Of a DNA stretch of 64,000 bases, positions 33,341 through 34,537 are shown one piece after another. The position numbers were made by a program, and so were the translations under genes. Under the pieces are notes generated by a model that saw only the letters and a program-made list of their open reading frames with translations, did no database searches and had not been told where the DNA came from. Numbering within the stretch: the first letter of the stretch is position 1; each line of letters opens with the position of its first letter. The DNA is taken from assembly GCA_046351325.1 (NCBI GenBank), contig JAXLYR010000002.1, forward strand, positions 688,334 to 752,333. The letters run 5' to 3'. This stretch comes from Polyangiaceae bacterium (GTDB taxonomy: Bacteria; Myxococcota_A; Polyangia; Polyangiales; Polyangiaceae).

Positions 33341-34537
33341 ATGAGGCGCTTGACGTTACTTTCGGGGGCGGCCGCGGTGTGCGGCGCATTGTTCATCCTC
33401 GCGGGCTGCAGCGACGACACACCCGAGGGCGGTGGCGGCTCCGGCGCAACCGCACAGGGCGGCAGCGCCGACGGTGGCTCCCCGAATGGCGGCTCGCCGG
33501 GTACGGGCGGCAATCCTGGGCAGGGTGGGGGCGGTGCTCCGAACGTTGGCGGGGCAGGTGGCTCGGGTTCGGGTGGCGCGCCGCCGACGCCTTGTCCCGA
33601 TGTCCTCAGCTGCAACGCCGCTTATCCCGATGTCGGCGCGGCGCGCGACTGGGTCCATTTCGGCAGCTCGGTGACGGCCGCGACAGGGTTCGCGAACCAC
33701 CGCGGTCGCGACATGTTCTACAACCCCGGCGACACCATCTGGGTGATGGGCAAGTTCGCTTATGGGGTATTCGACGACGACATCCAAGACGAAGACGTCG
33801 ACGTCTACCTCAACGAGGACTGCGGTCCGAATTGGCAACTCCTCGATACGGTGCGCACGACGACGGACGGCTTGCACGCGACGGTCGAGGGCGTCGAGGA
33901 CACCGGCGGTTGGGTCTATTACCAGCTCCCGTCTTCAATCCAATTGAGCGAGGGGCGACATCGCTTCCTCTTGGTCGTGGCGGGCGATCTCTCGACGACC
34001 GAGGTCTACGTCGACATCGTCAAGCCCGGCACGCCGCTCATCGTCAGCGACGTCGACGGGACGCTCACCACCACCGAAAACGAGGAGTTTACCGCGCTCC
34101 TCACGGGGTCATTGCCCGACGCCAACCCGAGCGCCCCCGAGGTCCTGACCGCCCTCGCCGAGCATGGATATCGGATCTTCTATTTGACGGCGCGCCCCCA
34201 CTTCCTCGGCGGGCGCACTCGGGAGTTCCTCGACGCGCACAACTTCCCGCTCGGCCTCGTGCACACGACGCTCACCTTCACCGGCGCGACGGGCAGCTCG
34301 GCGGTGACCTACAAGAGCGACGAGCTCGCGGCGATCGCGCAGCGCGGGCTCGTCCCGGCGTGGGCTTTTGGCAATACGGCGTCCGACGCCGAGGCCTACG
34401 ACAACGCCGGTATCACGCCGCTCAATCAGCGCATCATGTTCCAGTTCACCGACGACGTGTTCGGCGCGCGTCGCATCGAGTCTTACGCCGATTTGCTCCC
34501 CGAGGCGCTCGGTCTGCCGGACGCCGTTTGCCCCTGA
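33341..34537 (+). CDS. Secreted lipoprotein with HAD-superfamily LNS2 (lipin/Ned1/Smp2)-like phosphatase domain
   Basis: Signal peptide plus lipobox (LAGCSDD), a G-rich linker, and HAD motifs DVDGTLT (I), LTARP (II) and GNTASDAEAY (IV). The track ORF start at 32159 is wrong-frame overlap with MVP. Confidence 0.6.
   Translation: MRRLTLLSGAAAVCGALFILAGCSDDTPEGGGGSGATAQGGSADGGSPNGGSPGTGGNPGQGGGGAPNVGGAGGSGSGGAPPTPCPDVLSCNAAYPDVGAARDWVHFGSSVTAATGFANHRGRDMFYNPGDTIWVMGKFAYGVFDDDIQDEDVDVYLNEDCGPNWQLLDTVRTTTDGLHATVEGVEDTGGWVYYQLPSSIQLSEGRHRFLLVVAGDLSTTEVYVDIVKPGTPLIVSDVDGTLTTTENEEFTALLTGSLPDANPSAPEVLTALAEHGYRIFYLTARPHFLGGRTREFLDAHNFPLGLVHTTLTFTGATGSSAVTYKSDELAAIAQRGLVPAWAFGNTASDAEAYDNAGITPLNQRIMFQFTDDVFGARRIESYADLLPEALGLPDAVCP

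Follow-up and report, generated by a model that had tools for sequence, protein, structure and literature searches.

A predicted exported lipoprotein of Polyangiaceae combines a Nir2/lipin-like two-domain module with conserved HAD catalytic residues

INTRODUCTION

Apart from the bacterial family described here, the combination of an immunoglobulin (Ig)-like β-sandwich with a cap-less haloacid dehalogenase (HAD) domain is known only from eukaryotes, namely from lipin/Pah and from the C-terminal module of Nir2/PITPNM. In the lipin Pah2 of Tetrahymena (Tt Pah2; PDB 6tzy, 6tzz and 9d13-16; Pfam PF08235), D146 is the nucleophile and D148 the acid/base, D155 and N268 bind Mg2+, D272 holds a metal-bound water, and R269, which recognises phosphatidate (PA), forms the lipin/Pah signature motif together with D155 (PMC12657724). 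The Ig-like and LNS2 domains at the C-terminus of Nir2 (PITPNM1; PDB 9jtz, 9jz1 and 9jzp) bind the phosphate of PA through S1025, T1065, K1103, K1126 and D1127, have no nucleophile and do not hydrolyse the lipid, and dock through a concave face that carries positive charge (PMC12582312). In the present study, we describe a relative of both proteins that is encoded in a stretch of 64,000 nucleotides (nt), hereafter the window, from a Polyangiaceae bacterium (GenBank assembly GCA_046351325.1, contig JAXLYR010000002.1, positions 688,334 to 752,333 of the forward strand). Its gene specifies a predicted lipoprotein in which the Nir2/lipin-type module stands behind an export signal and a flexible tether. 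Proteins of this kind are already present in public databases with Pfam assignments, and a search of the literature turned up no study of LNS2 or lipin homologues from bacteria; what is new is the description of a predicted lipid-anchored, extracytoplasmic and catalytically intact relative of the module.

RESULTS

Domain architecture and relationship to Nir2 and lipin

The open reading frame (ORF) listed in Table 1 has exactly the limits given in the initial annotation, and its product is identical to a 398-residue NCBI protein encoded on a 1.14-Mb contig of a Polyangiaceae metagenome-assembled genome (MAG). Two PITPNM-type Pfam models matched the product above their gathering cutoffs in the order sandwich and then LNS2, namely PF24695 (PITM1-3 β-sandwich; 47.7 bits, E = 2e-12, residues 118-224, cutoff 27.7) and PF24694 (LNS2_PITM1-3; 68.1 bits, E = 9e-19, residues 234-360, cutoff 27.7). 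Matches of this strength lie well outside what chance would give. The lipin LNS2 model PF08235 fell just short of its cutoff (31.3 versus 32.3 bits) and was covered only at profile positions 13-114 of 226, though more distant homologues do carry recorded PF08235 matches. The LNS2 assignment proposed from the sequence at the outset thus holds at the level of the LNS2-superfamily HAD proteins, through the two PITPNM-type models, and not through the lipin model by which it was to be checked. The yeast-type PA phosphatase model APP1_cat (PF09949) scored 27.6 bits against a cutoff of 27.1 and overlaps the same-clan PF24694, which far outscores it, and Acid_phosphat_B (PF03767) scored 26.7 bits against a cutoff of 27. 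No PITP, FFAT or DDHD domain appeared in the Pfam scan at E ≤ 1, which returned only the sandwich domain and HAD-clan families, and no NCBIfam family matched the lipoprotein above cutoff.

The best PDB match by sequence was to mouse Nir2/PITPNM1 (C-terminal domain, 9jtz; E = 1.3e-12), with both domains covered, followed by the Tetrahymena Pah2 lipin (E ~1e-4). With a profile of the bacterial family as the query, the corresponding values were E = 3e-56 for Nir2 and E = 1e-22 for Pah2. Foldseek gave the same ranking, Nir2 and then lipin, with a whole-length match to both, and the whole predicted module superposed on the Nir2 C-terminal domain. By contrast, phmmer with the Nir2 fragment as the query did not detect lipin at E ≤ 10. 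In sequence space, the bacterial family lies between Nir2 and lipin on these comparisons, because the bacterial protein detects both, whereas the Nir2 query misses lipin.

The AlphaFold2 model, computed from a 39-sequence alignment, had predicted local distance difference test (pLDDT) scores above 90 over nearly the whole of residues 85-398 and below 55 over residues 1-80. The tether (61 residues, 43% Gly, without a single Lys or Arg) is predicted to be disordered, and it varies in length and sequence between homologues. Residues 230-398 are predicted to adopt an α/β fold with the Rossmannoid HAD core. The cap positions of this domain hold just two inserts of about 20 and about 10 residues in the modelled secondary structure, and the domain is thus predicted to be without a cap, as described for Pah2 (PMC12657724). 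Four Cys residues of the mature part are conserved in bacterial homologues, C85, C91 and C161 in the β-sandwich and C397 at the C-terminus; at the position aligned with Cys161, at least, cytosolic Nir2 has no Cys. The four residues would fit an oxidising compartment.

Conservation of the active site

For conservation, 275 homologues were aligned to the family profile, and the denominators given below are the sequences covering each position. The four HAD motifs are present in order, as the initial annotation had read them and as the alignments confirm. The motif I Asp, on whose conservation that annotation had made its assignment depend, is retained as D237 in 263/264 homologues, and D239 is invariant (264/264). 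Position 246, nine residues past the nucleophile, is acidic in 254 of the 264 homologues (Glu in 211 and Asp in 43). In motif II, position 283 is Thr or Ser in 257/259 and R285 is invariant (259/259), and the motif III K325 is found in 252/254. Motif IV is similarly constrained, with G344 in 253/253, N345 in 246/253 and D349 in 250/252 homologues. Altogether, the residues with roles in lipin chemistry or Mg2+ binding are 97-100% conserved over about 250 homologues. In the β-sandwich, H120 (251/251) and D124 (246/252) are conserved to a similar extent.

Position 346 (codon 34376..34378), which aligns with the PA-recognising R269 of Pah2, varies: it is Thr in 129, Ala in 43, Lys in 33 and Arg in 26 of 253 homologues. 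A basic residue thus occurs there in approximately 23% of the homologues (59/253), whereas Thr or Ala is found in the Polyangia clade. The presence of Lys or Arg in part of the family suggests that it may contain sub-groups of differing substrate specificity. Within the closely related Polyangia clade, a loop at the second cap position, H308-T309-T310...G315..G318..A321..K325, shows strong conservation; H308 and T309 vary in more distant homologues. The H308-G318 loop and the H120-R-x-R-D124 motif are candidates for a part in substrate recognition.

Comparison with lipin/Pah, Nir2 and class B/C acid phosphatases

In the alignment with Tt Pah2, D146, D148, D155, N268, D272 and R269 correspond to D237, D239, E246, N345, D349 and T346 of the lipoprotein. 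The lipoprotein thus shares with lipin/Pah the DxDxT motif, the GN...D of motif IV, the Lys of motif III and an acidic side chain where lipin has Asp155, but has Thr346 in place of the PA-recognising Arg, so that the GNR signature is absent. Furthermore, lipin/Pah proteins are cytosolic, eukaryotic and provided with an N-terminal amphipathic helix, whereas the lipoprotein is bacterial and is predicted to be extracytoplasmic and attached by a lipid anchor; its short helix at residues 107-115 is neither basic nor amphipathic on inspection.

In the alignment with Nir2, S1025, T1065, K1103, K1126 and D1127 correspond to D237, T283, K325, S348 and D349. The two proteins have in common the HR..D motif of the sandwich (NHRASD in Nir2), the second Asp of motif I, the Thr of motif II, the Lys of motif III and the last Asp of motif IV. 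Because the lipoprotein, unlike Nir2, in which Ser1025 replaces the nucleophile, retains Asp237, it is probably an enzyme. The PA-contacting Lys1126 of Nir2 is replaced by Ser348, and only the bacterial family has the conserved Cys residues and, at residues 308-318, the HTT...GAxG loop. The Nir2 module is moreover a cytosolic domain of a protein of approximately 1,240 residues with PITP, FFAT and DDHD domains, whereas the bacterial module stands alone and is predicted to be secreted. The folded part of the lipoprotein is very acidic, with an isoelectric point (pI) of 4.3 and a net charge of -27 (44 Asp and Glu versus 17 Lys and Arg); the median pI of the family is 4.9, and that of the Nir2 fragment is close to neutrality.

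The class B/C acid phosphatases (PF03767; Bacillus anthracis class C enzyme, PDB 2i33) resemble the lipoprotein in being exported bacterial HAD proteins with DxD chemistry. However, they match only the HAD core, over approximately 125-135 residues, and they have a helical cap and no Ig-like domain.

Export signal and predicted localisation

Residues 1-23, MRRLTLLSGAAAVCGALFILAGC, contain R2 and R3, a 17-residue hydrophobic core and then the lipobox. The peak hydropathy of the signal peptide in a 9-residue window was 2.76. PROSITE PS00013 was matched by VCGALFILAGC (residues 13-23), with the Cys within positions 15-35 and an Arg among the first seven residues. The same arrangement of n-region and h-region was seen in aligned homologues, and C23 is kept in at least 90% of the sequences of alignment A1, which was also used for the genome survey. 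A strict PS00013 match was found in 152 of the 216 homologues with an evaluable N-terminus (at least 70%); most of the others, including the member from the Gram-positive Clostridium felsineum, have a near-lipobox or a type I signal peptide. The signal peptide and lipobox initially read in this sequence, whose absence would have spoken against the whole assignment, are thus borne out, and the Pfam matches, the alignments and PS00013 together support its description as an exported, lipobox-bearing LNS2-superfamily HAD protein.

According to the sorting rules for Myxococcus xanthus lipoproteins, Lys at mature position +2 and Ala at position +7 are deciding residues (PMC3222651). The lipoprotein has Ser at +2 and Glu at +7, and sorting to the outer membrane is probable under these rules.

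Table 1 Features of the lipoprotein gene and its neighbours in the window
Feature	Coordinates	Strand	Basis or remarks
ORF of 398 codons, ATG to stop	33341..34537	+	
Type II (lipoprotein) signal peptide, residues 1-22	33341..33406	+	MRR n-region, then hydrophobic core; read from sequence
Lipobox L20-A21-G22-C23; predicted lipidated Cys23 at 33407-33409	33398..33409	+	PROSITE PS00013
Gly/Ser/Pro-rich low-complexity tether, residues 24-84	33410..33592	+	Composition; AlphaFold2 disorder prediction
Ig-like β-sandwich, residues 85-229	33593..34027	+	Pfam PF24695; all-β in the AlphaFold2 model, pLDDT >90
H120-R-G-R-D124 motif in the β-sandwich	33698-33712	+	Conservation in homologues
Cap-less HAD (LNS2-type) catalytic domain (predicted), residues 230-398	34028..34534	+	
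HAD motif I D237-V-D239-G-T-L-T243; putative nucleophile Asp237, acid/base Asp239	34049..34069	+	Alignment to Pah2 D146/D148 and Nir2 S1025/D1027
Glu246 at the lipin Asp155 position (extra Mg2+ ligand)	34076..34078	+	Pah2 alignment
HAD motif II Y-L-T283-A-R285-P	34181..34198	+	T283 aligns with Nir2 T1065
HAD motif III Lys325	34313..34315	+	Counterparts by alignment: Nir2 K1103; motif III Lys of Pah2
HAD motif IV G344-N345-T346-A-S348-D349	34370..34387	+	Pah2 and Nir2 alignments
ABC-F ATPase gene	28779..30731	+	
Major vault protein (MVP) homologue	30735..33266; likelier start 30804	+	MVP_shoulder 95.8 bits, Vault_3 32.1 bits, weak Band_7
Terminator-like hairpin, 12-bp stem, 13-nt loop, then U5	33284..33324	+	RNA fold; in the spacer between the MVP and HAD genes
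Second predicted lipoprotein (MRKWSL...LVGC)	34576..36264	+	DUF4215 27 bits, at cutoff

Distribution and naming of the family

In a representative library, 956 clusters at 50% identity matched the family with E ≤ 1e-3 and 503 with E ≤ 1e-10, and a scan of one genome per species gave 321 loci. The locus-level counts given below refer to the best 80 of these 321 loci, for which the scan patterns, derived from alignment A1, favour close relatives and are biased towards Polyangia. These 80 loci all belong to Myxococcota, class Polyangia (Polyangiaceae, Sorangium, Polyangium, Byssovorax, Nannocystaceae, Enhygromyxa, Plesiocystis and Paraliomyxa). More distant homologues are named from Oligoflexus, Bdellovibrionota, the candidate division CSSED10-310 and Clostridium felsineum. 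The family is, by these sequence searches, common in myxobacteria, mostly Polyangia.

Enzymes of this kind had been described at the outset as rarely annotated, but hundreds of homologues already have names in public databases: "phosphatidylinositol transfer protein" (for many NCBI entries), "LNS2 domain-containing protein", "lipin/Ned1/Smp2 family protein" and "haloacid dehalogenase". The first of these, which NCBI also gives to the lipoprotein itself, is a misnomer: the lipoprotein lacks a PITP domain and is not a phosphatidylinositol transfer protein. The name was apparently taken over from those of the Pfam families PF24694 and PF24695.

Gene neighbourhood

The G+C content across the window is 62-73%. 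The ORF of the MVP homologue starts 4 nt past the stop codon of the ABC-F gene, and the HAD gene follows 74 nt past the MVP stop codon on the same strand. The spacer between the latter two contains a hairpin that looks like an intrinsic terminator: its stem, AUCCCUCGAGGG / CCCUCGAGGGGU, is perfect, the core CCCTCGAGGG is itself palindromic, and the 84-nt stretch folded for this spacer has an energy of -34.9 kcal/mol (z = -1.9). The hairpin was spotted by eye and then folded; the consensus terminator/promoter scanner missed it, its loop being above 8 nt. The second predicted lipoprotein starts 38 nt past the stop codon of the HAD gene and has a Gly-rich linker, several Cys-rich repeats and a C-terminal region without a Pfam match.

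When the neighbours in the window were compared with the 80 related loci by tblastn, neither MVP nor the Cys-rich lipoprotein was found within 8 kb in any of them (0/80 each). An ABC-F gene lies near the HAD homologue in 5/80 loci, at varying positions. In a MAG of Bdellovibrionota with a distant homologue (locus L082, 3171..6235), the HAD gene is immediately preceded by an ABC-F gene of the same orientation. This pair, which in the window is split by the MVP gene, is probably due to chance, because ABC-F is near so few of the Polyangia loci.

Clustering of the ORFs over 81 loci revealed no universal neighbour of the HAD gene. The commonest neighbour family, Ser/Thr kinases, is simply abundant in Polyangia genomes. 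A PlsC-type acyltransferase gene (PF01553) lies convergently right after the HAD gene in eleven loci of the Sorangium clade and three genes off in two other Polyangia MAGs, which gives 13 loci altogether. In the two closest relatives, the HAD gene is directly followed by a gene for an AMP-binding (acyl-activating) enzyme; Nannocystaceae-type loci have a peptidase C26 gene directly upstream of it, and in Clostridium felsineum a CDP-alcohol phosphatidyltransferase gene is two genes away. The lipid-related genes among these neighbours are weak hints at a lipid context; none of the PlsC-type, AMP-binding, peptidase C26 and CDP-alcohol phosphatidyltransferase genes occurs in the window.

Elsewhere in the window, a gene at 25370..26779 on the minus strand encodes a glycoside hydrolase family 5 (GH5) cellulase with a GH5 C-terminal domain and an N-terminal signal/lipobox-like sequence, LGLACLGASC, which fits a polymer-degrading lifestyle of Polyangiaceae.

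DISCUSSION

Considering these results together, we propose that the lipoprotein is an exported, catalytically competent, Mg2+-dependent HAD phosphomonoesterase that acts most likely on a bulky or membrane-borne substrate of the envelope, of prey or of the environment, a reading to which we assign a probability of about 0.6. Judging from its signal sequence and from general lipoprotein biology, the precursor would be exported through the Sec pathway. Cys23 would receive a diacylglyceryl group, cleavage after Gly22 and N-acylation would follow, and the mature protein would be transferred to the outer membrane, where the flexible, Gly-rich tether of about 60 residues may let the folded module reach away from the membrane. 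From residue identity with the solved lipin structures, Asp237 would attack the phosphate to form a phospho-aspartyl intermediate, with Asp239 as the general acid/base. Mg2+ would be bound by Asp237, the backbone of Asp239, Asn345 and Glu246, Asp349 would position the metal-bound water, and Thr283 and Lys325 would bind the phosphoryl oxygens. The phosphomonoester hydrolysed would probably be bulky or membrane-borne, given that the catalytic domain is predicted to have no cap and the protein to be tethered to a membrane, and it could reside in the envelope, on prey or on material from the environment. By homology, PA or lyso-PA is the leading candidate, though this is the least certain step of the scenario, and PA itself accounts for less than half of the weight given above. 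If PA were the substrate, its recognition would differ from that in both lipin and Nir2.

Several points weigh against this reading, and most of them concern PA. The Arg269 of lipin is Thr346 in the lipoprotein, and Lys or Arg stands at this position in only a minority of homologues; the Lys1126 of Nir2 is Ser348; the folded part is strongly acidic, whereas Nir2 has a basic docking face; and the lipoprotein has no basic amphipathic N-terminal helix. Phosphatidate thus remains unproven as a substrate. The lipid-related genes found near homologues are loosely placed, belong to common families and are absent from the window. Furthermore, the catalysis, localisation and substrate of the family are predictions throughout, and the signal peptide and the sorting were assigned by rules, of which the M. 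xanthus rule is stretched here to Polyangiaceae, which belong to another suborder. The initial annotation had suggested that the protein may act on lipid phosphates or phospho-sugars in the envelope. For this protein, a lipin-like activity on PA is not established, because the Arg of lipin and the Lys of Nir2 are missing (T346 and S348) and the protein is so acidic (net charge -27).

The main rival is a phosphate-scavenging phosphomonoesterase of broad specificity, which would act on small soluble organophosphates (nucleotides, sugar phosphates or phospho-headgroups) in the manner of the class B/C acid phosphatases, with the sandwich as a mere appendage. Exported HAD lipoprotein phosphatases do exist, class C acid phosphatases such as e(P4) of Haemophilus influenzae being lipoproteins; the Acid_phosphat_B score falls just short of its cutoff, a non-lipid substrate would suit the acidic surface and the absence of the Arg and Lys that recognise PA, and scavenging enzymes that stand alone typically have, as here, no conserved operon partner. 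With class B/C enzymes, however, the match is limited to the common HAD core, no helical cap is predicted that could enclose a small substrate, and the whole-length match is to Nir2 and lipin, which are directed at membrane lipids. In addition, H120 of the sandwich is as strictly conserved as the catalytic residues, suggesting that the sandwich takes part in the function. We therefore consider scavenging a real but distinctly less probable alternative. The reading closest to the initial one, a true lipin-type PA phosphatase that converts PA to diacylglycerol and has been moved to the envelope, is less probable again and in our view unlikely. It would account for the two-domain fold shared with Tt Pah2, for the DxDxT motif, Glu246 in the place of Asp155, Asn345 as a Mg ligand and Asp349, for the marginal APP1_cat match, far outscored as it is by the overlapping PF24694, and for the phospholipid-synthesis genes nearby in some other genomes. 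Against it stand the replacement of the signature Arg269 by Thr (PMC12657724), the PF08235 score below its gathering cutoff, the very acidic surface and the lack of an amphipathic membrane-binding helix at the N-terminus. The proposed location is a further difficulty for it. In bacteria, PA is a minor lipid found mainly in the inner leaflet.

Two other explanations appear very improbable. A non-catalytic PA sensor or tether, binding the headgroup without hydrolysis, would follow the example of the LNS2 domain of Nir2 (PMC12582312), the closest relative in structure and sequence. But Nir2 has lost its nucleophile (Ser1025), whereas Asp237 and the other catalytic residues are almost absolutely conserved in the bacterial family, and neither Lys1126 nor the basic docking surface of Nir2 is present. 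Equally doubtful is a role as an accessory of the adjacent vault-like MVP gene, for example in modifying envelope lipids for a vault-related structure, a link to the MVP locus that had been raised when the gene was first annotated. The two genes are close together on one strand; however, no MVP homologue lies within 8 kb in the 80 related Polyangia loci, the 12-bp hairpin and U-run separate the genes, and the N-terminus of MVP has no visible signal peptide, suggesting that the products are in different compartments. A functional tie between the lipoprotein and the neighbouring MVP gene is thus not supported.

Beyond the exported phosphomonoesterase proposed above, a bolder and tentative reading, which we consider rather unlikely as it stands, is that the family represents the enzymatically active equivalent of the PA sensor of metazoan Nir2/PITPNM and perhaps its evolutionary source, and that the members of the family would serve as extracytoplasmic phospholipid-phosphate phosphatases on foreign or outer-membrane lipids, for example by stripping phosphate from the breakdown products of prey phospholipids. 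The family is concentrated in Polyangia and is also found in Bdellovibrionota/Oligoflexia. If this reading were true, the lipoprotein would be the first extracytoplasmic lipid phosphatase with the lipin fold.

So far, work on the two-domain fold of lipin and Nir2 has treated it only as eukaryotic machinery of the cytosol that makes or senses lipid signals. The existence of a large family of bacterial proteins in which this fold is joined to an export signal and a complete active site suggests that the fold works outside the cytoplasm too. The stand-alone module of approximately 315 residues would offer a tractable model for the transition from a phosphatase to the non-catalytic PA sensor of Nir2, and the present analysis flags a systematic mis-annotation, in which proteins without a PITP domain are named "phosphatidylinositol transfer protein". 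Once its substrate is identified, the family could point to a step so far unrecognised in how myxobacteria turn over envelope lipids, acquire phosphate or feed on prey.

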